Source of the DNA: an uncultured Planctomycetia bacterium
GTDB taxonomy: Bacteria; Omnitrophota; Gorgyraeia; 2-02-FULL-51-18; JAGOUK01
Assembly: GCA_964430735.1 (NCBI GenBank)
Contig: CAYSFB010000002.1
Location: 7,390-71,389 of the forward strand
Length of the DNA stretch: 64,000 nt
Direction of reading: 5' to 3'
Both the position numbers and the translations under genes were made by a program. Shown here piece after piece: positions 4,056 through 53,700 of this stretch. Under the pieces are notes generated by a model. That model worked only from the letters and a program-made list of their open reading frames with translations, was not told the origin of the DNA and ran no database searches. The first letter of the stretch is position 1. Every line of letters begins with the position of its first letter.

Positions 4056-4056
4056 T

Positions 4057-6056: not shown

Positions 6057-6455
6057 TTAGCGGATAAAGCGGACCTTGATCTGGCCGCGGACGGACTCAA
6101 AGTCCCGGTCGGCGGTCAGGAGTTCTCCGCCGCTAAATTGGGCGAGCGCGGCGGCGAAGCCGTCGGCATAAGCTAGTTTTCCTGAGGATTTAAATTCAGC
6201 GGCAGACTCCGAAGATTCTTTGTCGGCGGGTACGATGTCGATGGGAAACGAGGCGGTTGCCTGCAGGATCAAGCGGGCTTTTTCAGCCCCCATGTCACGC
6301 TCCATGACATAAGACACCTCGCCCCAATTGACGGCGGATATCAGAAGCGTGTCATCTTCAGTATAAGCAAGATCCAAGGCCTTGACGACTTCACCGTATC
6401 CGGGTTCCCGGCGCAAATAGGCCAATAAGGCCGACGCGTCCAGGACCCGCTTCAT
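6057..6455 (-). CDS. vapC: PIN-domain toxin (VapC-like)
   Basis: 132 aa with the PIN-fold pattern (N-terminal D in VLDASALLAYL, conserved acidic residues, C-terminal LLTADRDF). It overlaps the upstream antitoxin gene by 4 nt. Confidence 0.7.
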   Translation of the reverse strand: MKRVLDASALLAYLRREPGYGEVVKALDLAYTEDDTLLISAVNWGEVSYVMERDMGAEKARLILQATASFPIDIVPADKESSESAAEFKSSGKLAYADGFAAALAQFSGGELLTADRDFESVRGQIKVRFIR

Positions 6456-6712
6456 ACTCCGAACCTTCTGAGCTTGGCATCTTCTCGGCGCTTCTCACGG
6501 GCTTTTTCCTCAAACAGAATCTTGGTCAAGCTGCCCTTGCCGGCCGCCATTCCCGCCATCCGCTCGAAGTAGCCGCGAGTCAGCGGCTGGATCACGATCT
6601 GCCCCCCTTGCTCAAAAACGTTGAGCCGTGTCCCTGCACCGATATTCAGATGCTTGCGGATCGCGGCCGGAATTACGATCTGGCCTTTACTGGTGATCAC
6701 GGTGGTTGTCAT
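6452..6712 (-). CDS. vapB: AbrB/MazE-type (swapped-hairpin) antitoxin, VapB-like
   Basis: 86 aa. The N-terminus (VITSKGQIVIPAAIRKHLNIGAGTRLNVFEQGGQIVIQPL) is a typical SpoVT/AbrB DNA-binding fold. It is 4-nt overlap-coupled to the PIN gene. Confidence 0.65.
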   Translation of the reverse strand: MTTTVITSKGQIVIPAAIRKHLNIGAGTRLNVFEQGGQIVIQPLTRGYFERMAGMAAGKGSLTKILFEEKAREKRREDAKLRRFGV

Positions 6713-6793
6713 GAGAGCCTCCTGTTTCTTAGCGAAAGTATGCCCAAAACAGGAAGGTAAGTCAATATTTACAAACGTATTACTTATTAGTCT

Positions 6794-30281: not shown

Positions 30282-30376
30282 GATGTTCCTCCTTGAAAAA
30301 GCTTGTAATAAGAAAGCGGAATTATACCCCCGACCCGGTCCGGAGGCAAGTCAAACAAGGGTTTGGCGAAGGTCGG

Positions 30377-33300
30377 CTAGGAAGCGGAGCGGCCCGTCGG
30401 CAGGGTCGACTTGACCCCTCCGGAGGCGTCTTGGAGCTGGATGGACCGGCCGTCCGAGGATAGGCCGATTGTGGAAACACCTTCAACCTCGATCGTCTCT
30501 TCAGCGGTACCGGTTTTGGTGTTGATCTTGGAGACCGTGCCGTCCAGGCGGTTGAAGACAAAGAGGAAGTTGCCGTCCGGAGTTAACACGATGCGGGAGG
30601 GTTGTGAACCCGTCTTAAAGGTATTGACGACATCCCCTGTCGTGGAGCTCACCGCCACAATGGAGTCGCTGATCCCGTCAGCGATGTAAATGACGCCGCT
30701 GGAGCCGTCCATCACCAGGTCGGTGGTGGAATCCGTGATGTGCGATTCGATGAGTTCCACGATAGCAGGATCGAGGCCGGCAAGCTGTGCGGTCACGTAA
30801 GGATCAGCTGCGGGTCCGGAATTTTCATTTCCCCCATCCAAAGAACCGCCCGAACCGGACGAGCCGCCGCCGAATCCGCCGGAATCGCCGGTAGTCTGGA
30901 TCGCGGCCTGCAGCTCGTTGGTGATCGTCTCTTCGGTCACGACCGTCGCCGCCGGCGCTTCAGCTCCAAAGTCCCATCCAAGGTTGTTACCTCCATCCAC
31001 GGCATTTGTCGCCACCGGCTCAAGACCGCCCGTTGCATCGGAATCGGTGATCTCGATCCAATCCACATCGAAGGTGCCGCTGGCAACCAAATCCCAGCGA
31101 GTACCGGGATTCGACGACAGAAGATTCACGCGGTCATCCGCATCGATGCCGTTGATGGTCAGGAGTCCCGTGACGGTGAACGTGGATCCGGCTTCGAACG
31201 TCAGGGATACGTCCGTGCTGTCATCTGCCGCGTCGATCTTGGTGAGATCATAGAACGTGGTGTCCCCCGCCAAGGACTGGTCTCCGCCGTCGAACACCAC
31301 GCTGCCTGCCTGGGCAGTGAAGGTTCCGTTATTCGTCCAGTCTCCGGCGATGTTGATCTGGTAGTTGGAACCCGAAACATCCAGCGTGGAACCTGCGTCG
31401 ATTGTGAGAGTCAAATCAACATCAAGATTGCTCGCCAGAGTCACAGTGCTGTTGTTGGAGATCTGGAGGTTGTAAAAAGTACCGCCGTTCAGGGCGCCGG
31501 AGCCGTCCAGGACCACAAGACCGTTCCGCGCCGTAAAAGTTCCAGCGTTGTTAAAATCACTGCCGACATTCACTTGATAGTCGGATCCCGAAACATCGAG
31601 CGTGGACCCGGCGTCGATCGTGAGGCTCATATCGACGTCCAAGGCGCTGTTCAAGGTCACGGTGCTGTTGTTGGACAGTTGGACATCATAAAACGACTGT
31701 CCGCCCGGAATGAGCGTAGTCGTGCCGTTGAACACCACAAGACTCGTCCCCGCCGTGAACGTGCCGCCCACTTCCCAAAGACCTCCGACCGTGACGGTAT
31801 TAGCTCCGGGCGAGAAGGTTCCGGCGGCAGCGATGAGCATATTAGTTGTCGTGACGTCTCCGCCGGGGGTAAAGGTGCCGCTCATAACCGCAAGGCCATT
31901 GCTCCCCGCCATCGTCAGATCTCCGCCTGAGACCCCGTAGATGGCGGAGATATCCCCGTCCCCATTCGCGTCGGCGGTGTTGAGCGTCGTGTTCGTAGCG
32001 GGGCCTGTCCCGTCCTGACGGATAAGCAGATAGTTCTGGTAGACGTCCAGTCCGGTGTAAGTAGCTGCATCGTTGATCTGGACCGTGACACCCTGCTCAG
32101 CTTCCCCATCGATGTAGATCGTGATGATGTCCCCGTCAACCAGAGCAGTGGAAAGAGTGATCGAGTATGCGCCCGATCCGTCCGTATCGTCCGTCCCGTC
32201 CGCAGCAGCTCCGTTGATCGAGATGGCAATAGTCTTGCCGGCCCCGATATTGGTCACACCGAAGTCAGTAAAGACCGTGCCGGTGATCGTGGGGCCGGAC
32301 ACGAAGTCCCAATTGGTGTTGTTGCCGCTGTCGACGCTGGTACCGTCGGTTGCATCGATCACCGTCGCATGAATGTTATTGGAATCAATGACGTCGACAT
32401 TCGAGATCGTCCTCGTGCCTTGAGGGTCAATCGACCATTGAGTGCCGCCTGAATCGCTCTGGAGGACAAGGTCGGCTACCCCGTCGCCTTGAAGGGTCAA
32501 AGCACCCAAGATCGTCTGAGTGCTGCCGTTGGCAAAGGTGATCGAACCTCCGGAGCCGGTCTTGGTGAGGTTATAGAAGGTGGTGCTGCCGTTGATGGTT
32601 TGATCGTCACCCTGAAAAGTCACGGTCCCTTGCTGGGCGGTAAATGTACCGTTGTTGGTCCAGCTCCCATCGATGAGGATCTGATGATCATCTCCCGAGA
32701 CGTCCAACTCCGATCCTGCGTCAATGGTGAGCAGGTGCGCAACTTCGATCCCGATCCCCAACACCACCGTCGTGTTGTTCGAGATTTGCAGGTCGTAAAA
32801 ACCGCCGCCGAGAATGATAATTGAGGAGCCTCCTCCGTCAAAGATCACTGCGCCCTGCTGAAAACTAAAAGTACCGCCGTTCGACCAATCCCCGCCGACA
32901 TTGATCTGCCAGTCGGCTCCCGAAACATCCAGCGTCGAACCGGAATCGATGGACAGATCATTGCCTACGACCAGCGCCCCGCCTAGCGTTACGGTGGTGT
33001 TATTTGATATCTGGAAGTCGGTGAAGTTGCCTCCCGTGACGGTGGACGTACTACCGCCGTCAAAAACCACCAGCCCTCCCTGCGCGACGAAGGTGCCGGC
33101 GTTGGCAAAGTCCGCGCCGATATTCACCTGATAATTGGAACCCGACACCCCGAGGGTGGATCCCGTATCGATCGTCAGACCACCATCCAGATCCAAAGCG
33201 CCCGTCAAAGTGATCGTGGTGTTGCTCGAAAGCTGAAGGTTGAAAAAGCTTCCTTCCAGTGTGATCGCCTGTCCGCCGTCGAAGACAACAAGACCACTCC

Positions 33301-36300
33301 GGGCGTTGAAAGTGCCGGCGTTCGCGAAATCCCCCGCCACATTGATCTGATAATCCGAGCCGGAGACATCCAACGTCGACCCGGCGTCAATGGTCAGATC
33401 GTTTTGGACGGTGATGGCGCTGCCCAGCGTCAAGACGGCATTATTCGAGACCTGGAGACTGTAGAAGTCGGCCGAAGTGGACGTCCCGGGGCCGTCATAG
33501 ACCACCAGACCGCTCCGGAAAGCAAAGGTTCCGGAATTTGTAAAATCACCGCTGATATTCATCTGATAGTTGGATCCCGAAACATCCAGGGTCGACCCGG
33601 AATCGATGGTCAGTGCGTGAGCGCTCATCGCCCCGCCCAAAGTCATCGTGCTGTTGCCGGAAATCTGGAGATCGTAGAACGAACCGCCCACAACGGTGGC
33701 TGAGCCGGTAAATATCGTCAAACCGGTCTGGCTCGAAAAGGTGCCGCTATTGGTCCAATCCCCGCTGACGCTGATCTGATAGCTCGAACCCGAAACATCC
33801 AGGGTCGATCCCGCGTCGATCGTGAGCGCATGCACCGATATTGCGGCCCCAAGCGTCACCGAGCTGTTATTGGAGATCTGAAGGTCGTAAATACTCAGAC
33901 CCGGGGCCGTTATCGTTTGACCTCCGTCAAACACCAGGAGGCCGCTGCGAGCCGTAAAGGTACCCGACTTGATAAAGTCTCTTCCGATATAGACCTGGTA
34001 ATTCGAACCCGACACATCCAGCGTGGAACCCGCGTCAATAGTCAGATCATTGTCCACATCAAGATTGCTGCCGAGGGTCATGGTGCTGTTGTTGGATATC
34101 TGGAGGTTGTAGAAGGTGCCTCCGGTGATGCCCTCTGAGACGTTGAAGACGACCAGGCCGTTCCGGGGATTAAAAGTGCCGTTGTTGGTAAAACCGCTCG
34201 AGAGGTCCAATTGAAAGTTCGACGCCGACACGTCCAGCGTGGAACCGGCGTCGATATTGATCCCGTGAAGCGTGATGGCAGCCCCCAGGGTCAGGGTCGT
34301 GCTATTGGTCAAATAAAGGTCGTAGACGTTGAAGTCCAGAGATGTGGACTGTCCTCCGTCAAAGTACAGAACTCCCGCCTGCGCATTAAAGGTACCGGCC
34401 TTCGAGAAGCCCCCTCCGACATTGATCTGATAATTGGATCCCGAAACATCCAGCGTCGATCCGGCGTCGATCGTGAGGTCATTATCCACGTCAAAATTGC
34501 TTCCAAGCGTTGCAGTGCTGTTGTTGGAGACCTGGAAATTGTAAAAAGTTCCTCCCGACACTGAGCCGCTTCCGTCCAGCACCACAGAACCGTTCCGCGG
34601 ATTAAAAGTACCGGCATTAATCCAACTGGCCCCGACATTGATCTGATGGTTCGACCCGGAGACGTCCAGTGTGGAACCCGCGTCGATCGTGAGATCATTG
34701 TTGACGTCAAGCGCGCCCCCCAACGTCACCGTGCTGTTGTTGGAAATCTGAAGGGCATAAAAATTACCGCCAGTCACCGTACCGGCTCCGTCCAGAACGA
34801 CCAACCCCGCGTTCGGAATAAAAGTACCGTTATTGATCCAATCAACCCCCACGTTGATCTGATAACTGGCGCCCGAAAGGTCCAGCAATGAGCCGGCGTC
34901 GATCGTCAGCGAACCATCGATGTCCAATGCAGCCGACGGGTTGATCGTGGTGTTGTTGGACAGCTGCAAGTCATAAAAGTTCCCCTGAAGCGCGGTGGTT
35001 TGACCGCCGTCAAAGACGACTGTTGCAATATTGGGAGTAAATGTGCCGGCGTTCGACCAATCCCCTCCAATAGTGATATTAGAACCCCCCGCATTCAAAG
35101 TCGCCCCCGCATCGATCGTGATATCGTTGTCGGCGTCCAAGACACTACCCAAAGTCACCGTGCCGCCACTCGCGATCTGAAAATCATAAAAAGTGCCTCC
35201 GGTGACGGTACTGGTCCCGTCGATCACGACCAGACCGCCCCGCGGGATAAAGGAACCGGAATTGGCGAAGTCTCCGGCAACGTTCAGCTGATAATTGGAT
35301 CCTGAGACATCCAGGGTCGATCCCGCGCCGATGTTGAGAGCGCCGTTCACATCCAAAGGCGCATCCAGCGTGATCGTGGTGTTATTGCTGAGCTCCAGAA
35401 GGTAGAAGTTGCCGTTCAACGCGGTGGACTGGCCGCCGTCAAAGACCACGGCCCCGGTTTGATACGTGAAGGTCCCGCTATTGGACCAGTCGCCTCCAAC
35501 AGCAATGTCATAATTCGACCCCGAAACGTCCAAGGTCGCTGTTCCACCGATCGTGAGATCGTTATCCACGTCCAAGTTGCTGCCCAGGGTCGCCGTGCAG
35601 CCGGCCGAGATCTGAAGGTCATAAAAATTCCCTCCGGCAATGGTGCCCGTGCCGTCAAAGACCACAATTCCCGACCGAGGCACAAAGGTGCCGGAATTGT
35701 CCCAGCCGGTCGCGACGTTGATCTGAAAATTAGACCCGCTCTTGACGTCCACCGTCGCTCCGGCGGCAATGGTGATCGTTCCGTCGGCGTTCAGGGCGCT
35801 CTGGAACTCATACGTCGGACTGCCGCCGCCGTTTTCGAAGCTGATATTTCCATAGGTCGACGCGCCAAAGTTGAGTGTCTTGGTCCCCGAAACGGCGTTG
35901 AAGTGAAGCGTCGGACTCAGATCCGTGTTCAACGTTCCGCCGGAGGCGTCCCAATTCCCGGTGATATACATCGACCATCCGGCGGCGTTCGTGTCGAGAG
36001 TGCCTGTGAGCGTTAAATCGTTGTCCACGTGGAAATCGGCGTCGAGCGTGTAAGACCCCGACACGACAAGGTTATAAAATCCGTTCGCGCCTCCGGAAAA
36101 GCTCCCGGTTCCGGACAACGTGACCGTGCTCGAGTTGGCCGTAAACGTCCCGGCGTTGGTCCAATCCCCCGCCACGTCGACCGAATAATTGCTTCCCGAA
36201 GTGTCCAGCGTAGAACCCGCGTCGATGACGAGGTCGCCGTCCAGATCCAGATTTGCCCCCAACGTCATGGTGGTGTTCCCGGAAAGCCGGAGACTGTAAA

Positions 36301-39300
36301 AAGTGATGCCCGTCGGCAAGGTAAGGGTCTGCCCCCCGTCAAACACGACCAGTCCGTTCTGGGCAGATAAGGTTCCCGAATTCGCCCAAGTTCCACCGAC
36401 ATTGACCTGGTAATGCGAACCCGACACCTCCAGCGTGGAACCCGCGTCAATGGTCAGATCATTGTCCACATCAAGATTGCTGCCGAGGGTCATGGTGCTG
36501 TTGTTGGATATCTGGAGGTTGTAGAAGGTGCCTCCGGTGATGCCCTCTGAGACGTTGAAGACGACCAGGCCGTTCCGGGGATTAAAAGTGCCGTTGTTGG
36601 TAAAACCGCTCGAGAGGTCCAATTGAAAGTTCGACGCCGACACGTCCAGCGTGGAACCGGCGTCGATATTGATCCCGTGAAGCGTGATGGCAGCCCCCAG
36701 GGTCAGGGTCGTGCTATTGGTCAAATAAAGGTCGTAGACGTTGAAGTCCAGAGATGTGGACTGTCCTCCGTCAAAGTACACAACTCCCGCCTGCGCATTA
36801 AACGTACCGGAATTCGAGAAGTCCCCCCCGACATTGATCTGATAATTCGATCCCGAGACGTCCAGCGTCGATCCGGAGTCGATCGTGAGGTCATTGCTGA
36901 CGGTGATGGCGCTACCCAGCGTCAAGGTGGAATTGTTCGAGACCTGGAGGTTGTAGAAGTTGGCTGAAGTGGCCGTCCCGGTGCCATCATAGACCACCAG
37001 GCCGCTTCGGAATGTGAAGGTTCCGGAATTTATAAAGTCGCCGTTGATGTTCATCTGATAGTGGGATGCCGAAACATCCAGGGTCGACCCGGAATCGATG
37101 GTGAGGGTATGAGCCGACATTCCGCTGTTCAACGTCATCGTGGCATTGTTCGAGATCTGCATATCATAAAAAGCACCGCCGGTGATGGCGCCATTGGCAT
37201 CAAAGACGACCAGTCCGGCTTGACACATAAAAGTACCCAGACCATTCCAATCCCCGCCGACATTAACCTGATAATTGGACACCGAAACATCCAGCGTCGA
37301 ACCTGAATCGATCGTAAGGTCACCGTCAACATCAAAAGCGCTGTCCAGCGTGGCCGTGGTGTTATTGGATAATTGGAAATGGTAAAAGTAGTTGCCGCTC
37401 ATTGCGATCGATCCTCCGCCGTCGAAGACGACGAGTCCGTTTCGCTTGGTGAAGGCGCCGGACATGATCCAGGAGCCTCCAACATTAATCTGATAGTTGG
37501 ATCCCGAAACATCCAAAGTGCCGGCGGCAATGTTCATCCCGGCAATATCCAAAGCGGAGCCCAGTGTCCAGGTATTACCGGCAGCATTGACCTCAAAGTC
37601 ATTAAATGCACTTGAGCTGGTGATGGTTCCGCCAGTACCCTGGAAGCTGACGGCGCCGGTTCCGGCGGTAAAGGTTCCTCCGGTCTGATTCCAGCTGCTC
37701 CCCCCCACTATGATATTAAAGGTCGACGCATTCAGCGTCCCGTTCGCGATGGACATATTGCCCACCGTGATACCAACCCCCAGCGTGATCGTTCCCGTAT
37801 ATCCCGAAGCGATTGTGAAGTTGCCTCCCGACCACGTCCCCACGTTGTCGATCGTGATGTTGCCGGTGTACGTTCCATTAAAGAGGACTGCGTCTTGGTT
37901 ATCCGGAAGCGTGTCTCCGTCCCAGTTATTCGCATCCGACCAATTGGTTCCATCCCCACCCCCGTCAAAGGTCGGGTCGAAGAGGACGTTGGAGTTGTTG
38001 CTGCCGTTCACACCATGTTCAATAAAGAGGTAGTGGATGAGGTTCATATCCCGGGCATTGATTCGGTTCAAGTTAAGGCGTGATGCATAGGCGGAAGGGT
38101 CGCCAAAGTCCAGGAAGTATTGGGTGCCGGGGTTAGAAGACCTGAACTTGATGTGCTGTTCCCCGCCCTGGGCCTGGGGAAGGTCGGGGGCGCCGAGGAT
38201 GGTGACGTTATTAAGGAAGGTGTAGGTCTGACCTGCTTCCCAGGTCACTTCAAGGTCAGGAACGGTCAACGTGAAGTTGTAAAACGACCGGGAACCGTCG
38301 ATTGTTATGTTGGACTGAATATCCACTGAGTCATAAGACCCGGGGACAAAGCCGCCTGACCAGTTCAGGGGATCGGAATAGAGCGTGGAGGATGAGCCGT
38401 CAAATACGAGGGCTTGGAACAAGAGACCGGAGTTGTTCTGGAGATTCATCGAGTGGAGAAGTTCCAAGCTCGGCGGACCGTTGGAATCGAAGTACACCGT
38501 GTCTTGGACTGCCGTATAGATAAAGTTGTGATTTGAGACTTGTCCAATCATCCAGGGAACGCCCGCCTGGGTGGACCTTACGCTCAAGAGATGGCCATAG
38601 GAACCTTGAAGCGAGAGGGTTCCAGTGAAGCTCTGGCTAGCGCCTGATTCGAACTCGACCGTCTTCTCAGGGGCTATCACATAGAAGTCATGGAAGGCAT
38701 TGGATCCGAGGATATGGGAATCTTCCGATCCTTCAAGCTCGACTCTTGAGTCGCCTGACAGGAAGCTTCCCCCATTCACCCAGTCTCTTTGAAGAGTAAA
38801 AAGAACTGAATAGTCAGGGTTAGCGATAGGGTCTTGGGTGGCGGGGGCCTGAAGGGTTGCACCCTGACCTATGATGAGGGAGTCGACTGTGATGTTTGAA
38901 CCCTCGACTACCCTATATAAGGCACCCTGGCCGCTTAAGGTCAGGTTGCCGGTCACGTTCATGCTCTTGAGATCTGAAGTTTGAGTGGTATGAAGCGTGA
39001 TGTTGCCTTCGACATTAAGGTTGTCGGTGACCTGGACGGAGTTGGCTTCAACGGTCACTTCATCCGCCTTAAGGGTTCCTTCCAGCCGGGCTTCATCCGC
39101 AACGATCTCGATCACGCCGTCACGCTCAACCACATGCGTCGCTTCGATGACCCCGGTGTTGTTTACGACCCCTTCAAAGATGTTGTCCAGAGCTTTGGCG
39201 GTAAGGACCACTTTGTTGGAACGAATGGTTCCGTCGTTCTTGACGTTGGGGTTGGATGAGTACTGTTGAACGAGAGCTTGATCGATCGATACGCTCACCA

Positions 39301-39916
39301 ACCCTTCGCTGTCAAAAGAGAGGGTTGCTTTTTCGCAAGCGGCGATCTCGACGGTTCCGAGTTGGGCTTCGATCAAACCGGTGTTTAAGATTTCTTGGGA
39401 AAGAAGGACCACGTTCTTGGCGGAGATGTGTCCGGCATTGTGGATGAAGGAGGCGCCGGATTCGTTTTCGAACACGAATTGATTGGATGCAAAAAGGGCG
39501 TTTGAGATGTCCAAAGTTGAGACTGCCAAAGACCCGGCTGAGATATTGGCGTTCTGTCCGATATTAAAACCATTTGCATTCACCAAAAAGATCTGACCAT
39601 TCGCGTTCAGAGTTCCGAAGATCTCGGAGACTGAGCCGCCGGTGACGCGGGACAGAAGGGTGGATGCTTCGGAAGCTTGGATGAAGTTGACGGTCTGGTT
39701 TTCTGCAATCGAGAAGGAGTCGAAGTTGATGATGGCGCCGTCTGAGGCGGTGATGGTTAAAAGATCCGGAGTTGAGTCATCAACTGTTACCGAACCATTC
39801 TCGACCGTCCAGCCGGATGGAAGTGCGTAAGCTGAAGCAGAACCCAATAAGCATAGCCCTCCCAGGAGTCCCAGGAGAGAGATGCGGCCTATGAGGGTGT
39901 TCTGCAAGCGTTTCAT
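30377..39916 (-). CDS. Two-partner-secretion exoprotein (TpsA; filamentous-haemagglutinin-like beta-helix adhesin, 3,179 aa)
   Basis: A signal peptide (MKRLQNTLIGRISLLGLLGGLCLLGSASAYA) is followed by a TPS/haemagglutination-activity-like domain (NFIQASEASTLLSRVTGGSVSEIFGTLNANGQIFLVNANGFNIG). Then come about 30 tandem ~70-aa beta-helix repeats of the type GSTLDVSGSNYQINVGGDWSNSGTF...FYDLQISNNST. A TpsB gene is adjacent. Confidence 0.8.
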   Translation of the reverse strand: MKRLQNTLIGRISLLGLLGGLCLLGSASAYALPSGWTVENGSVTVDDSTPDLLTITASDGAIINFDSFSIAENQTVNFIQASEASTLLSRVTGGSVSEIFGTLNANGQIFLVNANGFNIGQNANISAGSLAVSTLDISNALFASNQFVFENESGASFIHNAGHISAKNVVLLSQEILNTGLIEAQLGTVEIAACEKATLSFDSEGLVSVSIDQALVQQYSSNPNVKNDGTIRSNKVVLTAKALDNIFEGVVNNTGVIEATHVVERDGVIEIVADEARLEGTLKADEVTVEANSVQVTDNLNVEGNITLHTTQTSDLKSMNVTGNLTLSGQGALYRVVEGSNITVDSLIIGQGATLQAPATQDPIANPDYSVLFTLQRDWVNGGSFLSGDSRVELEGSEDSHILGSNAFHDFYVIAPEKTVEFESGASQSFTGTLSLQGSYGHLLSVRSTQAGVPWMIGQVSNHNFIYTAVQDTVYFDSNGPPSLELLHSMNLQNNSGLLFQALVFDGSSSTLYSDPLNWSGGFVPGSYDSVDIQSNITIDGSRSFYNFTLTVPDLEVTWEAGQTYTFLNNVTILGAPDLPQAQGGEQHIKFRSSNPGTQYFLDFGDPSAYASRLNLNRINARDMNLIHYLFIEHGVNGSNNSNVLFDPTFDGGGDGTNWSDANNWDGDTLPDNQDAVLFNGTYTGNITIDNVGTWSGGNFTIASGYTGTITLGVGITVGNMSIANGTLNASTFNIIVGGSSWNQTGGTFTAGTGAVSFQGTGGTITSSSAFNDFEVNAAGNTWTLGSALDIAGMNIAAGTLDVSGSNYQINVGGSWIMSGAFTKRNGLVVFDGGGSIAMSGNYFYHFQLSNNTTATLDSAFDVDGDLTIDSGSTLDVSVSNYQVNVGGDWNGLGTFMCQAGLVVFDANGAITGGAFYDMQISNNATMTLNSGMSAHTLTIDSGSTLDVSASHYQMNINGDFINSGTFTFRSGLVVYDGTGTATSANFYNLQVSNNSTLTLGSAITVSNDLTIDSGSTLDVSGSNYQINVGGDFSNSGTFNAQAGVVYFDGGQSTSLDFNVYDLYLTNSTTLTLGAAITLHGINIDAGSTLDVSASNFQLDLSSGFTNNGTFNPRNGLVVFNVSEGITGGTFYNLQISNNSTMTLGSNLDVDNDLTIDAGSTLEVSGSHYQVNVGGTWANSGTLSAQNGLVVFDGGQTLTLPTGITFYSLRLSGNTTMTLGANLDLDGDLVIDAGSTLDTSGSNYSVDVAGDWTNAGTFTANSSTVTLSGTGSFSGGANGFYNLVVSGSYTLDADFHVDNDLTLTGTLDTNAAGWSMYITGNWDASGGTLNTDLSPTLHFNAVSGTKTLNFGASTYGNISFENGGGSPTYEFQSALNADGTITIAAGATVDVKSGSNFQINVATGWDNSGTFVPRSGIVVFDGTGTIAGGNFYDLQISAGCTATLGSNLDVDNDLTIGGTATLDVSGSNYDIAVGGDWSNSGTFTYQTGAVVFDGGQSTALNGNFYLLELSNNTTITLDAPLDVNGALNIGAGSTLDVSGSNYQLNVAGDFANSGSFIPRGGLVVIDGTSTVTGGTFYDFQIASGGTVTLGSVLDADNDITIDAGATLNAGGSNITIGGDWSNAGTFTPNIATVVFDGGQTTALQGNFYDLQLSNNTTINPSAALDIDGSLTIDAGSLLDLSGASYQINVGVDWINNGTFIPNAGLVVLDGAGTVTGGNFYALQISNNSTVTLGGALDVNNDLTIDAGSTLDVSGSNHQINVGASWINAGTFNPRNGSVVLDGSGSVSGGTFYNFQVSNNSTATLGSNFDVDNDLTIDAGSTLDVSGSNYQINVGGGFSKAGTFNAQAGVLYFDGGQSTSLDFNVYDLYLTNSTTLTLGAAITLHGINIDAGSTLDVSASNFQLDLSSGFTNNGTFNPRNGLVVFNVSEGITGGTFYNLQISNNSTMTLGSNLDVDNDLTIDAGSTLDVSGSNYQVYIGRDFIKSGTFTARSGLLVFDGGQTITAPGLSIYDLQISNNSSVTLGAAISVHALTIDAGSTLDVSGSSYQISVSGDWTNSGTFSSQTGLTIFTGSATVVGGSFYDLQISGNSTMTLGGAMSAHALTIDSGSTLDVSGSNYQMNISGDFTNSGTFAFRSGLVVYDGPGTSTSADFYSLQVSNNAVLTLGSAITVQNDLTIDAGSTLDVSGSDYQINVAGDFANAGTFNARSGLVVFDGGQAITLEGSFFNLQLSSNTTITLTGALDLDGGLTIDTGSTLGVSGSNYQVNIGADFANAGTFVAQGGLVVFDGGSTSTVTGGNFTDFQISNNTTVTLGGALVVGNDLSIDSGSTLDVSGADWQINVGGDWSNGGTFSFQQGAVIFDGGGSSIIILGGGFYDLQISNNTTVVLGIGIEVAHLLTIDAGSELDVSGDDHQILIDGSWTNNGTFTAQQGTVTFQGDDQTINGSTTFYNLTKTGSGGSITFANGSTQTILGALTLQGDGVADLVLQSDSGGTQWSIDPQGTRTISNVDVIDSNNIHATVIDATDGTSVDSGNNTNWDFVSGPTITGTVFTDFGVTNIGAGKTIAISINGAAADGTDDTDGSGAYSITLSTALVDGDIITIYIDGEAEQGVTVQINDAATYTGLDVYQNYLLIRQDGTGPATNTTLNTADANGDGDISAIYGVSGGDLTMAGSNGLAVMSGTFTPGGDVTTTNMLIAAAGTFSPGANTVTVGGLWEVGGTFTAGTSLVVFNGTTTLIPGGQSFYDVQLSNNSTVTLNSALDVDMSLTIDAGSTLDVSGSDYQVNVGSDFNNAGTFTARNGLVVLDGSGALNGGTFYNLQISNNSTVTLASNLDVDLTLTIDAGSTLDVSGSNYQINIAGDWTNNGTFTAQAGSVVFDGGDQSLAGDTTFYDLTKIDAADDSTDVSLTFEAGSTFTVTGLLTINGIDADDRVNLLSSNPGTRWDLVASGTFDVDWIEITDSDATGGLEPVATNAVDGGNNLGWDFGAEAPAATVVTEETITNELQAAIQTTGDSGGFGGGSSGSGGSLDGGNENSGPAADPYVTAQLAGLDPAIVELIESHITDSTTDLVMDGSSGVIYIADGISDSIVAVSSTTGDVVNTFKTGSQPSRIVLTPDGNFLFVFNRLDGTVSKINTKTGTAEETIEVEGVSTIGLSSDGRSIQLQDASGGVKSTLPTGRSAS
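39000..39830 (-). other. Domain: TPS (haemagglutination activity) secretion domain of TpsA
   Basis: The N-terminal ~280 aa after the signal peptide carry the NxxNG(F/I) and LLSRVTGG-type motifs of TpsA secretion domains. Confidence 0.6.
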
Positions 39917-40061
39917 ATAATTGTCTAATATTAGATAACATTGTATGGTTACAGACCTATTTTGGCAAGTTTATTTATTTTATTTATATGGTTGTCAATT
40001 TTGAATTGGAATACACCAATGGAGAGGGCAATAAGAGGCGGGAGATCTTTTTTGTGGTGGG

Positions 40062-41375
40062 CTAAATGCTGGCGAGGCCGATGAGGTCGGCGGCGGTGAG
40101 GGTGCCGACGATCTTGCCGTGCTTGTTCACGATGATGATGATTTCGCTTTTGGACTCCTTGAACTTGCGGACGGCAGCGGCGAGCTGTTCCCCATCCTCA
40201 AGGACGACGAAGTTTTTCTTCGCGACTTCACGGATGGGCTGGTCCCATTCTTGAAGCGCGATCTCGGGGACTGACAGCGCGTCCAGACGACGCACGTTCA
40301 TGAGGCGGCGCTTGATATAGGTATACAACTGGGCATTCGGGATCTGCTTGTACCCTACCGGGATCGGCGGGACCGGCTGACCTTGAGCGAAGGCCAGATG
40401 CGATTCAAACGCGCTCATCTTGAATTGATTGGCCGTCGTCAAAAGATACCGGAGCGAGCTGTCCGGCACGAGCTCCTCTTCCGCTTCCGGGATCGAGGCC
40501 AGGAAACACATCTCGTACGCGTCGTCCATCGTCAGCTTGAGTTCTTTGTATCCGCGGCCGATGAAGTATGCGAGCTCCTGGTCCTGATCCTTGAACTCCG
40601 TCGAATATTTTTCGAGCGTGTCGATCGCGTCCGCCAGGAACATGCCCAGGGCGACGTCGATGTTGTATAGGATCCCCGCCATCACGATCGCCGCGTCATC
40701 CGACTGGCCCGGCCCGACCCGGTGCCGGATATAGAAGTAACGGATGAGGTCGCCCATGTCCGGGTCGTACTCCTCCATGATGAGCCCGACGCGCTTGAAC
40801 TCCTCAATCTCATGTTCATGCGGGTCATGCGCCAGATGCTCGCCGTCCAGCCCCATGCTCGTCATCACATTCGCGTTGACGAAGTACAACTTGCCGCCGC
40901 CGATCTTGATCTGGTAGCGGGCTTCCGTTTCTTTGCGGACGTCGATGTTGTCGCGCAGGCCGCCCAAAAAAATTCCGCGCAGAATGTCGCGCGCGTTCAC
41001 GCGCCGGTCACGGAACAGTTCGATCCCGAGAAACGGCTCGCCGCGGTGATTGACCAGCCGGTCGAGCTTTTCGCCGTGCATCGTGGTCTTCACGAAATCG
41101 ATGATGTCGTTGATCAGACCCTGGCGGTATTGCTTGGTTTTGACCGGGTCGCGCTTGAGCGCCCGGACGATGTCGTCGATATTGGTGTTGACGTAGGCGC
41201 GTTTGTTGAAGACTCCGGCGCCGTTATGCGCCCGACCTTCGATGGATTGGACGAAGATCATATCAGCGACGTCGTTGGAAGCGATCAATTGTTCGTGGGA
41301 ACGGATGAGCTCGAAGTCCTTTCGGATGAGCTCCGCGGGGGCGATGTCTTTCCTAAAATCCCGGGGTGTGTCCAT
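40062..41375 (-). CDS. Hypothetical protein with C-terminal CBS domain
   Basis: 437-aa ORF with an ATG at 41375. The C-terminal ~60 aa form a CBS motif (VVLEDGEQLAAAVRKFKESKSEIIIIVNKHGKIVGTLTAADLIG). I recognise no family for the N-terminal 370 aa. GC is lower than the window average. Confidence 0.5.
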   Translation of the reverse strand: MDTPRDFRKDIAPAELIRKDFELIRSHEQLIASNDVADMIFVQSIEGRAHNGAGVFNKRAYVNTNIDDIVRALKRDPVKTKQYRQGLINDIIDFVKTTMHGEKLDRLVNHRGEPFLGIELFRDRRVNARDILRGIFLGGLRDNIDVRKETEARYQIKIGGGKLYFVNANVMTSMGLDGEHLAHDPHEHEIEEFKRVGLIMEEYDPDMGDLIRYFYIRHRVGPGQSDDAAIVMAGILYNIDVALGMFLADAIDTLEKYSTEFKDQDQELAYFIGRGYKELKLTMDDAYEMCFLASIPEAEEELVPDSSLRYLLTTANQFKMSAFESHLAFAQGQPVPPIPVGYKQIPNAQLYTYIKRRLMNVRRLDALSVPEIALQEWDQPIREVAKKNFVVLEDGEQLAAAVRKFKESKSEIIIIVNKHGKIVGTLTAADLIGLASI

Positions 41376-41465
41376 GCTTGAACCAAGTATACACTAGTAA
41401 TACACGGTTAATCAAAAACTCATAATTACAAACAATTCAATAAGTATTGAACCAGCTCCGACAAT

Positions 41466-43235
41466 GTGCCAAAATGCTTCATGCACTCAAACCGCAGGTT
41501 CGCTATTGCAGCCTTTTTAACGGCTTTTCATGTCCTATTGCTCACCCGGGGTACGGATTCCGTCGCCTTAGCCGCAGATAACGACCCTTCCCTCGCAGAC
41601 GCCGTTCAACAACAGACCAGCCAGGCCGAAGAATTCCGCCGTCAAACGGAGGCCCGCGAAGCTGAACCTCCCGCCCAAAGCCCTTTAGCGCCGGCTGAAG
41701 CCGAGTCGGAAAAGGCAACGGGGCCCGACGCCGGTCCCCGCTTCCAGGTCAGCAAGATCCTTTTTGAGGGAAATACGGTCTTCCCTTCTTCCGACTTCGA
41801 CCCTTACGTCAAGATACATGAAGGTGAGACGGTCAGTCTCGAGGACCTCAAACTCGCCGCCAAGGCGGTCACACTCCATTACCGCGCCCGCGGATACCTG
41901 ACCAGCCGCGCTTACATCAAACCCCAGAAGATCGTGAACGGCGTCGTCACGATCCAGGTGCTCGAAGGCCGGTTGGACAAAACGGTCGTTGAAGGCAACC
42001 GGTATTTTTCGACCAAATTTTTTGAAGAAGCGGCGGCCATGCCCAAGGACAAGCCGTTCCGGTACTCGGAACTCGAGCGCCGCCTGCGCTTCGTGAACCG
42101 GAACCCCGACTTCCATATCGCCGCGGTCCTCGCCCCCGGTCAGACGCCGGAGACGTCCGACCTGCACCTCAAGATCGACGACGGCCTGCCGATGCACGCG
42201 TATTACGAGTTCAACAACCGCGGCTCCAAACTCACCCACCGGTCGCGTCACATGGTCACCGGCGTTCACAATAATTTCCTCGGCAAGGCGGATTCCCTGT
42301 CGGTCACCGGCTCTATCGCCGAAGAAGATGCGTTCCGCGCGCTGTCGGCGTCGTGGTCGCTGCCGATGTGGCAGACCGGCACAACCTTCATGATGTCGGG
42401 CAGCTACGTCGACAGCAGGCTCGTCAAACACCTCAAACCCCTGGACATCGAGGGCCTTTACACCAGCGTCACGCCGGCCATCTCGCAGGAACTCGTCATC
42501 ACGCAGAAGGACCAGCTGTCCTGGTACGCCGGCCTTGAGATCAAGGATTCCAAGTCCACGATCAGCGACACCAAGACCAGTCTCGACCGGATGCGCGTCC
42601 TGGTCACCGGCCCGCGCTGGACGCATCTGGGCGGCGGCGGACGGACCAGCCTTTCGGGCGATGTGCATTGGGGTATTCCGGGTCTCCTGGGCGGATCTGA
42701 AGCGGAGGATCTCAACGCTTCGCGGAACGGTTCGGGCGGGGATTTTATTTATTACACCGGTTCCGCTTCTCGGATCCAGCGCCTGCCGCTGGGACTCACA
42801 GGCGTGCTGCGCGGCGAAGGCCAATGGACCGACGACACCCTGACGGCGGTCGAACTGATGCGTCTCGGGGGTTACTCCGGTGTGCGCGGCTATCCGGAAT
42901 CAGACTCGCAAGGCGACTACGGGTTCATGGGAACGATGGAGCTGGTCGCCCCGACCCCCCTGCCCGACAGCATCAAGTTCCCTTTTACGAAGGACCCCTT
43001 CAGCAAGTCGGTTGATTGGCTCGTGTTCTTTGACGGGGGAAAAGTTTTTGCCCAGGAACGCGGCGCCCGGACCGACGTCAAGGATCGGATGTTATTGGGC
43101 ATCGGCGGCGGTCTTCGCGTTCACTTGAAGCAGAATATTTCCGCCCAGCTCGATTACGGCTGGCCCGTCGGCGACGACTCCACCGATACGGACAACCAAC
43201 CCCAAGCCCACTTCTCGATCCGAGTCGGTCTCTAA
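41466..43235 (+). CDS. Two-partner-secretion outer-membrane transporter TpsB (ShlB/FhaC/HecB family)
   Basis: A POTRA region (PRFQVSKILFEGNTVFPSSDF..., VTLHYRARGYLTSRAYIKPQKIVNGVVTIQVLEGRLDKTVVEGNRYF) is followed by a C-terminal beta-barrel. The ORF track begins at GTG 41466. An in-frame ATG at 41481 gives a clean signal peptide (MHSNRRFAIAAFLTAFHVLLLTRGTDSVALA). Confidence 0.8.
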   Translation: MPKCFMHSNRRFAIAAFLTAFHVLLLTRGTDSVALAADNDPSLADAVQQQTSQAEEFRRQTEAREAEPPAQSPLAPAEAESEKATGPDAGPRFQVSKILFEGNTVFPSSDFDPYVKIHEGETVSLEDLKLAAKAVTLHYRARGYLTSRAYIKPQKIVNGVVTIQVLEGRLDKTVVEGNRYFSTKFFEEAAAMPKDKPFRYSELERRLRFVNRNPDFHIAAVLAPGQTPETSDLHLKIDDGLPMHAYYEFNNRGSKLTHRSRHMVTGVHNNFLGKADSLSVTGSIAEEDAFRALSASWSLPMWQTGTTFMMSGSYVDSRLVKHLKPLDIEGLYTSVTPAISQELVITQKDQLSWYAGLEIKDSKSTISDTKTSLDRMRVLVTGPRWTHLGGGGRTSLSGDVHWGIPGLLGGSEAEDLNASRNGSGGDFIYYTGSASRIQRLPLGLTGVLRGEGQWTDDTLTAVELMRLGGYSGVRGYPESDSQGDYGFMGTMELVAPTPLPDSIKFPFTKDPFSKSVDWLVFFDGGKVFAQERGARTDVKDRMLLGIGGGLRVHLKQNISAQLDYGWPVGDDSTDTDNQPQAHFSIRVGL

Positions 43236-43237
43236 TT

Positions 43238-43290
43238 AAATAGGGACACGTACTATTTAATTTGAAATAAATAGTACGTGTCCCTATTTA
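43238..43290. terminator. Palindrome AAATAGGGACACGTACTATTTA-(8 nt)-TAAATAGTACGTGTCCCTATTTA between convergent tpsB and fmt (bidirectional terminator / REP-like)
   Basis: Near-perfect ~22-nt arms in a 69-nt AT-rich spacer between the tpsB stop (43233..43235) and the fmt stop (43305..43307). Confidence 0.65.
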
Positions 43291-43304
43291 TTATTTTGTT
43301 CGGA

Positions 43305-50795: not shown

Positions 50796-53700
50796 TTATG
50801 CTGAGATCGCCGCCAACCGGATAGCCGTCAGGATTTGCTGAAAAACCTCCCAGGCCCGGCGCATCGGCCGGAGCTTATGGAGGTTCAAAACCTCCCGCTC
50901 GGCCGCTTCCTGAGGAACCCGCTGGACCTTGGCTAGAATTGCGACCGGCAGTTCGACACCAAAAAGCGTGCTCAGTACCGACGTGCAGATCGGGTCCGCG
51001 GCCAAGGAGGCGGCGCCCCCTTCCCAGCGCGCCAGCCGCGCGCCTGCCAGAACCGCCCTGATCACGTCCGGGTTCGGATCCGATACAAATCCCACGGCGC
51101 CAGGCTTAAGATCTGCAGCATTCAAGGCGATGACCGCTTCGGAATAATCGGCCGCATCCGGAGCCGGAACCCGGCCCGTGAAGTTCTCGACCTGGCTCAG
51201 TTCCAAATAAATCCCCCGAACTGCCAGCCGAGCCGCAGCCGCAGCCAGCACCTCGCTCTGCTCGAACCTCCTGGCCGGATCAATCGCGAGGACGCCGCGC
51301 TCCAGCCGGACCAATACCCGGCGCTCCGAACCGGCCTCGGCCCCCTTCAACAGATCTGACAACTGCGACAGAGCCCGTTCGCCTTCCGCTTCTGAAGCAT
51401 ACGCCAGGGCGCCGGCGACCGGCTTCCATCCCGACAATCCAAAGAACTGCATGAAAGAATCCGGCCAGCCCGCCAGCCGCGCGCCGCTCTTGCTTTCCTG
51501 CAATGCGCGCAAGTCCAGGATGGCTTTTTGAACTGGCTTGACCGCGCTGGGCCTAAAACGGTGAATCCAGTTCTTGATGCTCTTGTCGCTCCGATCGCCG
51601 AAACGGGCGTCGTGCTTTTGGAGCTCCTGCAGAAGCCTGTCAAAATCCTCCGGATGCGCATCGGGATCCATCAAAACACGGTCCAATGATGCCGACAGGT
51701 GCGGGTTGGCCAGCGCAGCCGCTTCAACCGTGAAGAGAAGCCCCAACCTCCATGCGTTGGGCATCCTGTTGCTTGGGGCGTTCCGGAGCATGCCCTCCTG
51801 TTCGGTCAGAATTTGGATCAGCCGGTCCGCACGATCGGCGAACCACTCATAGCCGGGTTTCCACGCATCTTTCCGGTCCTTGTAATACTGGCGGTCTTCC
51901 AGCCAGATCAATCTGCCCCGAAGCAGTCCGGCCGGCTGAACAGCGGCCAGGAATCGGCCGATGGCTTGGTGCAAACGCCCGCGCAAAGCAGGATTGTTCG
52001 TTTGCGCTTCAAGCGCCCGGCGCAGCGACGGCATGTACATGTGGATGTCAAAAAAATCCCGCTTGTGGTTCAGGTGCGCTGCCCCGAAAAGCAGATCGGT
52101 CGCCACCGCCTCAAGTCCGGCGTCGCCCGGAAGCAGGACGAGATTGCGCGAAAGCCGCTGATACCCTTCAATCAGGCGCTTATCATTAGCATCCACGAAG
52201 TAGGAGAGATTCAAGACCAGAAGGAGCGGCAAGGAAAGAGGGCCCGCCGATTCGTACCATCTTCCGCTTTGAACATCCGAATTATACCGATCGACCAATC
52301 GTCCAACGGCGGCCATCTCCTCCGGGTCGGCGCTGCCTCCTCGCTCAAGCAAGTACATCGCCGAGGTCATCAATAGCCGCACGGCGTCCGTCGATCCGTC
52401 CCGCGCGGACTTCAGCTTCAAGCGATCCAGATTGAGCAGCAGCAGCTGCCGGCCTTCGTCCGACAGGACGGATTCCAGAAGATTGGATGCACGGGCGCTG
52501 GCCTCTGATCTCCAGTCATAATCCGGGTCTGCGGCGGAGACTGCTGCTCGAATCAATTCAGCGCGGACATCCACGATCCCGGCGCCTGCCTGACCTTGAT
52601 TCGCCAGCCGCGCGCCCTCCAAGGGGGACTCCGCAGGCCGTTCCGCCGTGAGGACGCGCAGAAACTCGCGGTTCTTCGCTTCGGCACCGGCAAACGGATC
52701 CCGCTGGTCTACTTGAAAGCCGGAATGCTGATAGCGGGTCCGGTTCTGCTGCATGGCGATGCGATGAGCCCATTCATCAACAAAACCCGGATCCGTCGTG
52801 TATCCGCCGTGAATAACGCGGCGAACTTGCGGGTGGTTGGAGGCGATGCGGGAGATCGCGGCATCCGGATGATCATCCGGCCGTTGGTCCAATCGGTCGA
52901 TTGGTCCATAAATCTGCCAGGGCCCCATGTCGGCGACGATGCCGGTCAGGGGCGCCCCGATCACATGCATCGCTGTCTCGAGCTTGCCGTCAAATTCTTC
53001 CGCCGTCACGTCGCCGGGAAGCTCCAAATAATCCGGATTCACCCCGCGACCCGGGGCGTTCCAGGACTCTTTCCAAAGATAGGCGCGCGAGACCTCAAGC
53101 CCCCTCTCCTCCTTTTCGACCAGCACGGCCTTGCGGTTCATACGCATCAGGATGCGCGACAGGACGGCGTCTTCGCCTGATCCGACATCCAGCCACCATC
53201 CCTCCGGCAGCCGGCCCTGACGCCAATCGTCCAGCAGTTGACCGATCATCACCGCGGTGAACATGCTCATGGACATGCCCGGATACTTTTTCATTTCCAT
53301 CGCGGCGAAAGAGGACGGATGAATCAGCAGGATGTTGCCGGAGTGCTTTTCATACACGTCTCCAAGCAAGCGGATCAAGCGGTCCATTTCGCGGCGCACC
53401 GCCAGCGAGTCCCGGCCATTGCCCGAGAAGCCTTCGGTGAGATTGACAAAAATCAGCGGTCCGACACGAATCACATGCGCGTACGGGGCCAGATGGGAAT
53501 GCCCCGGAACCCGGAACCCCTCTCGGCTCAAGACGATCGGAACCGTCCGTCCCGGTCCGAACGTCATGACATGTACGGGCTCGAATTGCGATTCCGGATC
53601 CCCATAATCAGGAACGATTTTTTTCAGAACCTCGCGGGCCAGTCGGTCGGCTTCCGCTTCAGTAAGATCGTGCAGCGGCGCTGCTGGGACAACCCTCATC

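Follow-up and report, generated by a model that had tools for sequence, protein, structure and literature searches.

Here we describe a type Vb (two-partner) secretion locus in an uncultivated Omnitrophota bacterium (assembly GCA_964430735.1), contained within an analysed stretch of 64,000 nt, hereafter the window. We consider it likely that this is a real type Vb system producing a beta-helical, adhesin-type fibre, and that its two genes, tpsA and tpsB, are separate accessory insertions and not one cassette. To our knowledge, studies of type Vb secretion have almost all been performed in Proteobacteria, and our full-text literature search combining Omnitrophota with "two-partner secretion" returned no papers. 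The locus provides a clear case from the Omnitrophota and is unusual in two respects, namely a passenger with a 72-residue repeat that is not catalogued and a gene arrangement that varies among relatives.

The interval 30377-43235 contains only three large ORFs, all of them conserved, with 3179, 437 and 589 aa. The exoprotein gene tpsA and the transporter gene tpsB are divergent and lie 1.5 kb apart with one unrelated gene, encoding a CBS-domain protein, in between. The locus is flanked by gap-pgk-tpiA-secG beyond tpsA and by fmt-def beyond tpsB. Its features are as follows:

30321-30349, minus strand: gap promoter-like site TTGCCT-17-TATAAT, overlapping a conserved TTGACT..TATAAT element (motif scan)
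30377-39916, minus strand: tpsA, TpsA exoprotein, intact ORF of 3179 aa (ORF, Pfam TPS, TIGR01901, PDB sequence matches)
30380-30799, minus strand: C-terminal tip after a Gly/Ser linker, aa 3040-3179, about 2.5 YVTN-type propeller blades (phmmer, profiles)
31298-31735, minus strand: 72-aa repeat block 3, aa 2728-2873, 2 units, then a capping module ending GGNNLGWDF
32621-35815, minus strand: 72-aa repeat block 2, aa 1368-2432, 15 units (self-built HMM; DNA repeats)
33984-34483, minus strand: 500-nt intragenic duplicate copy, partner at 36396-36895
36122-37630, minus strand: 72-aa beta-helix repeat block 1, aa 763-1265, 7 units (self-built HMM; DNA repeats of 216-nt period)
39023-39823, minus strand: TPS secretion domain, aa 32-298 (Pfam, TIGR01901, motif scan, PDB)
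39824-39916, minus strand: putative Sec signal peptide, codons 1-31, with MKR, hydrophobic core LLGLLGGLCLLG and ASAYA (read from the translation by eye)
39940-39968, minus strand: tpsA promoter-like site TTGCCA-17-TACAAT, located within the AT-rich spacer 39917-40061 (motif scan)
40062-41375, minus strand: CBS-domain gene, resident, between the TPS genes and outside the TPS system (homologues, synteny, GC3)
41386-41415, minus strand: promoter of the CBS gene itself, TTGATT-18-TATACT with TG, conserved GTGTATACT (motif scan and conservation)
41466-43235, plus strand: tpsB, Omp85-family TpsB transporter, 589 aa (Pfam, PDB matches)
43237-43290, no strand assigned: perfect 23-bp hairpin separating tpsB and fmt, which converge (-33.9 kcal/mol, z -9.7)

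The TPS domain of TpsA is recognized by Pfam (PF05860; residues 32-274, E 1.6e-24, 87.7 bits with a cut-off of 33.5) as well as by TIGR01901 (E 9.8e-17, 60.7 bits with a cut-off of 29.1), and its best PDB sequence matches are EtpA (8cpk; E 1.1e-27), HxuA (1.6e-21) and HMW1 (2odl; 9.3e-17). It is preceded by what is probably a Sec signal peptide, as judged from the translation. TPS domains usually carry conserved NPNL and NPNG(I) motifs. Neither NPNG nor NPNL was found in TpsA, which has NANG at residues 104 and 113 (LVNANGFNIG) in place of the expected NPNG; the equivalent stretch reads LVNPNS in the relative L005 and LVNSNG in L009. The passenger holds 24 copies of the 72-residue repeat with a mean column identity of 65% at the protein level. 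This repeat is widespread among giant surface proteins and has no counterpart in Pfam or NCBIfam, and its last two copies were modelled by AF2 as a right-handed beta-helix. The intragenic duplicate is 97% identical to its partner, including about 340 identical nt, and reflects either recent gene conversion among repeat units or an assembly risk. At the C-terminus, the tip matches 1L0Q (phmmer E 3.6e-12), with sub-threshold matches to TIGR02276 and YNCE, and its AF2 model is of low confidence (pLDDT below 60). The tip is apparently a truncated propeller; in the related TpsA proteins of L009 and L011, the YVTN region is multi-blade and spans roughly 300 aa.

TpsB combines a POTRA_2 domain (aa 93-168, E 2.8e-21), the one POTRA domain seen by Pfam, with a ShlB barrel (230-551, E 7.3e-24) and an Omp85 match (E 1.2e-7). 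The VRGY motif of its L6 loop (V473 R474 G475 Y476) is invariant in an alignment across five close homologues, and PDB sequence matches include CdiB (6wim; 7.6e-20) and FhaC (4qky; 4e-7). Translation probably starts at the ATG at 41481, which would give 584 aa, and the hydrophobic N-terminus ending in VALA, found by eye, is a putative signal. The 47 closest homologues share 38-62% identity, followed by a drop to 31% or less, and the sole taxonomically labelled sequence among them is from Omnitrophota. The ORFs lie where an earlier sequence-only reading of this DNA placed the genes, and the TPS, POTRA_2, ShlB and VRGY matches bear out the two-partner identity that it put forward. Pfam found no FHA-1/FHA-2 repeats (PF05594, PF13332) in TpsA. 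Judging from its family, TpsB would act as an Omp85-type outer-membrane channel. TpsA would be exported by Sec, its TPS domain would be recognized by the periplasmic POTRA domains of TpsB, and TpsB would then thread it to the cell surface. The resulting fibre would consist, in order, of the TPS domain, a long beta-rich region with the 24 repeats, capping modules, the Gly/Ser linker and the YVTN remnant.

The evidence that the two genes were inserted separately begins with the gene between them. The CBS gene is a resident, phylum-conserved member of the def-fmt-CBS-(gap) backbone. Its product has one CBS domain according to Pfam and belongs to a family of more than 580 homologues, and the gene directly follows def-fmt in 50 of the 65 informative Omnitrophota species loci; the earlier label of an orphan is thus mistaken. 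It is kept in every relative compared, including L002 and L007, which have no TPS genes at the site, and a collinear relative has def-fmt-CBS-gap without either TPS gene. This should serve as a caution when calling islands, since a gene located between two accessory genes and AT-rich spacers, in a region of partly lowered GC, is nonetheless among the most conserved of the phylum. Around the CBS gene, four locus states exist in the genus: no TPS genes, tpsB alone (L006, L012 and L094), tpsB|CBS|tpsA as in the window (L001 and L005), and CBS|tpsB|tpsA (L008), in which tpsB lies on the other side of CBS. In L008, L009 and L011, tpsA and tpsB are immediately adjacent. The backbone with no TPS genes, the tpsB-alone state and the joint state downstream of CBS together indicate that tpsA and tpsB are separable insertions.

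The insertion points can be located as well. The tpsB-CBS-tpsA junctions recur in independent assemblies, while the window is the sole example of a tpsA-gap junction, with gap starting 95 nt past the tpsA stop. Conservation of the gap promoter element just 3' of this stop extends to L002, L006 and L007, in which CBS immediately precedes it; retained here, the element delimits the tpsA insertion on its downstream side. Presumably, an ancient backbone of def-fmt-CBS-gap-pgk-tpiA-secG took tpsA and tpsB separately into its intergenic spacers: tpsB would have entered the spacer that runs from the fmt stop to the CBS promoter, and tpsA, which has an AT-rich promoter of its own, the spacer from the CBS stop to the gap promoter. 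Both points are clean and leave the downstream promoters intact. The tpsA genes of L005 and L008 are preceded by a similar ATTGAC..AT-rich element, and the hairpin between tpsB and fmt is a probable bidirectional terminator. With regard to age, the neighbour-joining (NJ) tree and identity ranks of tpsB broadly follow those of def and fmt, although some nodes differ between genes in these single-gene trees of 7-11 fragmentary contigs, and the nearest taxonomically labelled homologues of both TpsB and TpsA are from Omnitrophota. A long history within the genus, marked by losses and rearrangements, fits this better than a recent import does, and tpsB seems to have passed down vertically from the genus ancestor onwards, with repeated loss. 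As the arrangement differs among relatives, accessory surface genes evidently turn over inside a very stable housekeeping block.

A different history is conceivable for tpsA alone, which could be a comparatively recent foreign gain or recombinational replacement in the ancestor of the window and L005, beside a long-resident tpsB. We regard this as possible, though on the unlikely side. It would account for the presence of tpsA at the CBS|gap site in this sister pair only, and for the three tpsB-bearing relatives without it. The passengers also differ wholly between the sisters: TpsA of L005 is 51% identical to that of the window over the first ~730 aa and is unrelated, Gly-rich sequence thereafter, and the passenger region has been replaced between the two lineages. 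Furthermore, no gene in the window is lower in GC than tpsA, and only one ABC gene has a less core-like codon usage. At 55.5% GC (z about -2.9), tpsA falls below the core genes (61.6 +/- 2.1% GC, GC3 0.80 +/- 0.06), and its GC3 is 0.683 compared to the 0.83 expected from core usage. However, much of the drop is due to amino-acid composition (GC1 0.515), and a low GC3 is compatible with weak expression and is also seen in the other two giant ORFs of the window (GC3 0.70 and 0.72) and in some core genes. The CBS gene (58.1% GC, GC3 0.803) is core-like and tpsB (60.5%, 0.752) is intermediate and inside the core range; the AT-richer codon composition once attributed to all three genes is therefore a property of tpsA, and one that other giant ORFs match. 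Being confined to tpsA and shared by other giant genes, composition is weak evidence of foreign origin, and the truly atypical codon usage of tpsA may reflect an older one. Further arguments against a recent gain are that the best N-terminal homologues of TpsA are Omnitrophota TpsA proteins (32-44% identity) and that a related tpsA (45% identity), similar in promoter, adjoins tpsB in L008, which suggests that the two genes have been in the genus equally long.

A more speculative proposal, and a rather doubtful one, concerns what such turnover might achieve. The locus could be a hypervariable cell-recognition module, in which a resident TpsB at the def-fmt|CBS junction serves interchangeable TpsA fibres that set the host or prey range. 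If so, sister lineages would exchange, shorten or lose passengers (72-aa beta-helix or Gly-rich arrays) and propeller tips, similarly to the diversification of phage tail fibres, and genomes with only tpsB would have their TpsA elsewhere. The organisms concerned are ultra-small Omnitrophota, possibly predatory or epibiotic.

The same truncated tip could instead signify that tpsA is decaying or non-functional and that selection retains tpsB only. The remaining ~2.5 blades, the lack of a Shine-Dalgarno sequence upstream of tpsA as judged by eye, the relatives holding tpsB but not tpsA at the site and the weak codon bias of tpsA all agree with such decay. Still, the 9,540-nt frame is uninterrupted in a 60% GC genome, the promoter-like site is conserved and the repeats are well conserved in protein, which makes it quite improbable.

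Less probable again, and by our estimate very unlikely, is that tpsB, CBS and tpsA form a single 13-kb island acquired horizontally between gap and fmt, as the sequence-only reading had suggested. The TPS genes are indeed accessory, being missing at the site in the close relatives L002 and L007 and in 79 of 80 other species loci; tpsA is low in GC and GC3, and the spacers 39917-40061, 41376-41465 and 43236-43304 are as AT-rich as was claimed (32.4, 32.2 and 27.5% GC), the lowest among the window's intergenic spacers. Against import as one block, CBS follows def-fmt across the phylum, also where the TPS genes are missing, and has core-like codon usage; tpsB occurs without tpsA in three relatives and across CBS in L008, and its tree broadly agrees with those of host genes. 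A scan of the locus for mobility hallmarks found no integrase or transposase, no credible tRNA and no direct or inverted border repeat of at least 9 nt. One-block acquisition is thus contradicted by a resident CBS gene and by tpsA and tpsB that vary independently.

Least probable of all is that TpsA is a CdiA-like contact-dependent inhibition (CDI) protein or another toxin-delivering exoprotein, since its great length and the standing of CdiB as the best solved relative of TpsB are opposed by a motif scan that found no VENN, VDNN, [VIL][ED]NN or related motif in TpsA, by the absence of Pfam matches to PT-VENN (PF04829) at E <= 0.01 and to the FHA-1 and FHA-2 repeats, by a C-terminus that resembles a YVTN propeller, and by a 95-nt spacer 3' of tpsA with no credible ORF, only out-of-frame mechanical ORFs and the conserved gap promoter.

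The adhesin-type, non-CDI reading made at the outset holds, given the missing VENN motif and FHA repeats and the lack of space for an immunity gene, and the best TPS matches agree with it. Most likely, TpsA serves to adhere to surfaces or other cells or to recognize them.

Among characterized systems, EtpA/EtpB of enterotoxigenic E. coli and HMW1/HMW1B of Haemophilus influenzae share with the window locus a TPS domain (theirs being its best matches in the PDB), an Omp85 partner with POTRA and barrel, and the lack of a toxin tip. However, the window passenger is about twice as long, carries the 72-aa repeat and ends in a YVTN propeller remnant; its genes are divergent and have an unrelated core gene between them, the locus lacks a glycosyltransferase partner (EtpC or HMW1C), and the host belongs to the Omnitrophota instead of the Proteobacteria. 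FhaB-FhaC of Bordetella pertussis is likewise a type Vb system with an L6 VRGY motif in TpsB and a long beta-helical fibre, whereas TpsA has no Fil_haemagg repeats by Pfam, no recognisable FhaB-type prodomain and NANG for NPNG. CdiB/CdiA/CdiI resembles the window locus in its transporter, CdiB (6wim) being the closest solved homologue, and in the size of the exoprotein, but not in VENN/PT, FHA-1/FHA-2, toxin domain or immunity gene.

Large surface proteins are already known from this phylum. Omnitrophota giant repeat proteins are much larger, multi-domain and encoded next to genes for type II/IV secretion or pili, and a role in adhering to other cells has been proposed for them (West-Roberts et al. 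2023, bioRxiv 10.1101/2023.11.21.568195; 2026 preprint, 10.64898/2026.06.07.730766); neither of these papers mentions hemagglutinin or two-partner secretion. TpsA is similarly large, beta-rich, presumably extracellular and strain-variable, but is predicted to have a dedicated type Vb partner for export. A closer counterpart is the 1011-aa TpsA of L009 (GCA_964606485.1), encoded beside a tpsB of the same clade (43% identity; TPS domain 38%). It likewise has a capping module with a GNN.W-type ending, a Gly-rich linker and YVTN blades, whereas the window gene is parted from tpsB by CBS and its protein retains only ~2.5 blades and is three times longer, owing to the 72-aa repeat arrays.

The interval between the gap operon and fmt encodes a two-partner secretion (TPS) pair, as the sequence-only reading had proposed, and most of what that reading observed proved correct, including the exact positions of all three open reading frames:

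30377-39916, minus strand: tpsA, ORF of 3179 aa, the exoprotein
40062-41375, minus strand: CBS gene, ORF of 437 aa, lying between the two TPS genes
41466-43235, plus strand: tpsB, ORF of 589 aa, the outer-membrane transporter (584 aa in the public annotation, which starts at an ATG five codons downstream)

TpsA carries a TPS secretion domain (PF05860, residues 32-274, E 1.6e-24; TIGR01901, E 9.8e-17), and TpsB combines POTRA_2 (E 2.8e-21) and a ShlB-type barrel (E 7.3e-24) in Pfam with a VRGY motif in the L6 loop (residues 473-476) that is invariant among its close homologues. The CBS-gene protein has one C-terminal CBS domain and no other domain recognisable by Pfam or NCBIfam. The flanking genes, all of them minus-strand, are secG-tpiA-pgk-gap beyond tpsA and fmt-def-rluB-like-NUDIX-Ysc84 beyond tpsB. 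The further proposal that this is an adhesin-type system and not CdiA/CdiI also stands: a motif search of TpsA found no VENN or similar motif, Pfam found no PT-VENN, FHA-1 or FHA-2 domain, no toxin domain was detected in the protein, and there is no space for an immunity gene 3' of tpsA, with gap starting 95 nt after its stop. By sequence, a CdiB is the closest solved relative of TpsB (E 7.6e-20), a closeness that reflects transporter phylogeny only.

The same reading had treated the three genes as a single 13-kb block with the CBS gene as an orphan, and here the comparisons point elsewhere. The CBS gene has more than 580 homologues (52-88% identity), the named ones labelled Omnitrophica or Omnitrophota. 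When its loci were scanned with one genome per species (80 loci, nearly all of them carrying an Omnitrophota label or coming from unclassified MAGs), fmt was directly upstream in 50 of the 65 loci having enough upstream sequence and gap was within 7 kb downstream in 26 of the 54 having enough downstream sequence, with a TPS gene nearby in only 1 of the 80 (L012). These counts indicate that def-fmt-CBS(-gap-pgk-tpiA-secG) is an old syntenic backbone of the phylum. Among related loci from other assemblies whose CBS protein is 85-91% identical, four gene orders can be distinguished:

State A: def, fmt, CBS gene, gap (L002, L007)
State B: def, fmt, tpsB on the opposite strand, CBS gene, gap, no tpsA (L006, L012, L094)
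State C: def, fmt, tpsB, CBS gene, tpsA (the window, L001, L005)
State D: def, fmt, CBS gene, tpsB, tpsA (L008)

L013 and L037 are listed under state A on the basis of fmt directly upstream of the CBS gene and no tpsB, both contigs ending inside the CBS gene, and L001 is an independent assembly of the window's strain (100% identity). L002, an 84.7-kb JGI contig, runs collinear to the part of the window between about 21.6 and 64 kb (nucleotide identity 71-91%) and lacks tpsA, tpsB and the 3866-aa ORF at 50796-62396. It is evident from the four states that tpsA and tpsB are separable and that the CBS gene is the fixed point, so the notion of a single block does not hold. States C and D could possibly have arisen by duplication followed by loss, or by independent insertions.

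Horizontal acquisition of the block, with which the same reading had found the locus compatible, fares little better. TpsB identity between the window and L005, L006 and L008 is 63, 59 and 55%, respectively, the same order as for def and fmt, and the neighbour-joining (NJ) tree of TpsB, ((window, L005), L006) plus (L008, (L012, L094)), agrees in broad outline with those of def and fmt. The 47 closest homologues of TpsB (38-62% identity) group together coherently, and the sole named member of this group is labelled Omnitrophota; beyond them identity is 31% or less, and the named homologue there is labelled Nitrospinae. A metagenome scan with the TpsB alignment yielded only 2 weak loci. The nearest TPS-domain proteins are likewise from Omnitrophota (32-44% identity), as found with an N-terminal 731-aa TpsA query, whose matches were all 1274 aa long or less and included neither the window TpsA itself nor any close full-length TpsA. 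There are no mobility genes and no credible tRNA at the TPS interval, the insertion borders carry no att-like or target-site repeats of at least 9 nt, and there are 0 Rfam matches across the whole window. Elsewhere, a tRNA-Asn predicted by ARAGORN at 23923-24001 (minus strand) falls within an ABC-permease ORF (23208-24044) and has no counterpart in Rfam, so the call is probably false. L008, which has TPS genes, has the TPS-free L002 and L013 as its sisters, so losses explain the pattern more parsimoniously than many separate gains would. Single-gene NJ trees from fragmentary contigs suggest that the insertion into the backbone is old, at the level of the genus, and that rearrangement and repeated loss came after it. 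That tpsA came separately and later, in the ancestor of the window and L005, is less likely but plausible.

Both insertion points are clean: tpsB sits between the fmt stop and the CBS gene's own promoter, a conserved extended -10 element (GTGTATACT), and tpsA, which has its own AT-rich promoter-like region, fills the space from the CBS stop to the promoter of gap, which is conserved too (TTGACT...TATAAT). Between tpsB and fmt, which converge, stands a perfect hairpin of 23 bp (-33.9 kcal/mol, z -9.7). Two intergenic palindromes, at 25002-25048 between the sbp5 and permease genes and at 43241-43286 between tpsB and fmt, share the ends TAGGGACAC...GTGTCCCTA (0 expected by chance); no such palindrome was found in 11 related loci, and the two may belong to a small hairpin family of terminator or REP-like type.

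With regard to composition, the lower GC ascribed to the block was borne out for tpsA only. Across the window's core genes, mean GC is 61.6 +/- 2.1% and mean GC3 0.80 +/- 0.06. The composition of tpsA is truly atypical (55.5% GC, GC3 0.683, GC1 0.515), whereas tpsB is within the core range (60.5%, GC3 0.752) and the CBS gene is core-like in GC3 (58.1%, GC3 0.803). The drop in tpsA is partly due to amino-acid composition, which is rich in Gly/Thr/Ser/Asn/Asp, and partly to weak codon bias, its own amino acids predicting a GC3 of 0.83 under core codon usage. The window's two other giant ORFs have the same GC3 as tpsA (0.70 and 0.72). Furthermore, GC3 is 0.69 in one ABC-transporter gene and highest in the glycolytic genes (0.88), so low GC3 in tpsA may mirror expression level as much as origin. 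The bounding spacers are as AT-rich as described, their 32.4, 32.2 and 27.5% GC being the lowest intergenic values in the window.

Among solved structures, TpsA best matches EtpA (1.1e-27), HxuA (1.6e-21) and HMW1 (9.3e-17) by sequence. Three blocks of its passenger (aa 763-1265, 1368-2432 and 2728-2873) hold a total of 24 full copies of a 72-residue unit, with the consensus VFDGxxTxxGGxFYDLQISNNxTxTLGSALDVDxDLTIDAGSTLDVSGSNYQINVGGDWxNxGTFxxxxGLV, recognised by neither Pfam nor NCBIfam. Among 1.84 billion representatives, a profile of the unit matches 3137 proteins at E <= 1e-3. The best 150 are mostly proteins of 1-7.6 kaa with many copies; a TPS domain is present in only 7 of these 150, and one protein has a T9SS sorting domain at its end. 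The unit is therefore a general extracellular fibre module, joined in the window to a TPS domain. In the sister lineage L005, TpsA shares 51% identity across roughly its first 730 residues and then turns into an unrelated Gly-rich repeat, so the passenger is modular and fast-changing. Within tpsA, 33984-34483 and 36396-36895 form a 500-nt duplicate that is 97% identical (about 340 nt are identical, at about 34040-34385 and 36452-36797) vs 62-80% for other repeat units, reflecting either recent gene conversion between units or a possible assembly collapse/misjoin.

The final ~140 residues of TpsA, preceded by a capping module (…GGNNLGWDF) and a Gly/Ser linker, match YVTN propeller blades, with a match to the Methanosarcina S-layer protein 1L0Q (E 3.6e-12), sub-threshold matches to TIGR02276 and YNCE, and about 2.5 blades by eye. 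In Omnitrophota relatives (L009, L011) the same cap-and-linker layout leads to a ~300-aa multi-blade YVTN end, the 1011-aa L009 TpsA being TPS plus YVTN propeller. No alternative frame extends tpsA, so its propeller looks truncated by deletion. An AF2 model of residues 2728-3179 built without an alignment has a low-confidence tip (below pLDDT 60), and Foldseek against the PDB gave 0 matches at E <= 0.001. Because phmmer with the L009 propeller gave 0 matches at E <= 1e-3 against other TPS proteins and window TpsA, the homology rests on 1L0Q, NCBIfam and tblastn. On the distant Omnitrophota contig L011, two tandem tpsB genes precede a convergent TpsA of >1634 aa with the multi-blade end (6091-9511).

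The best-supported prediction for TpsA is an adhesin or recognition fibre. Giant adhesion-type proteins occur in Omnitrophota, for which a predatory or host-dependent life has been proposed (bioRxiv 10.1101/2023.11.21.568195), and attachment to other cells is a reasonable guess for them. Neither that study nor the 2026 preprint on 176 complete Omnitrophota genomes (10.64898/2026.06.07.730766) mentions two-partner secretion. The kind of system is already known, and the comparative interest of the locus is moderate, lying in its repeat type and its polymorphic, split gene arrangement.

The 72-residue repeat is absent from the window's two other giants, and the representative P0433 (4896 aa), considered as a match to the 4896-aa ORF, is a different protein. 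Missing from the otherwise collinear L002, the 3866-aa ORF (50796-62396, minus strand) is another strain-variable giant gene, inserted between conserved neighbours; its only recognisable domains are GNAT (aa 639-697) and HATPase_c (2499-2623). The 4896-aa ORF (6794-21484, minus strand; GC3 0.70) contains a GH77 4-alpha-glucanotransferase domain (aa 2257-2904), a GDPD phosphodiesterase domain (4053-4294) and an alpha/beta-hydrolase region (~1950-2100). At the equivalent position L002 encodes a different giant gene of 5692 aa with WD40-type propellers.
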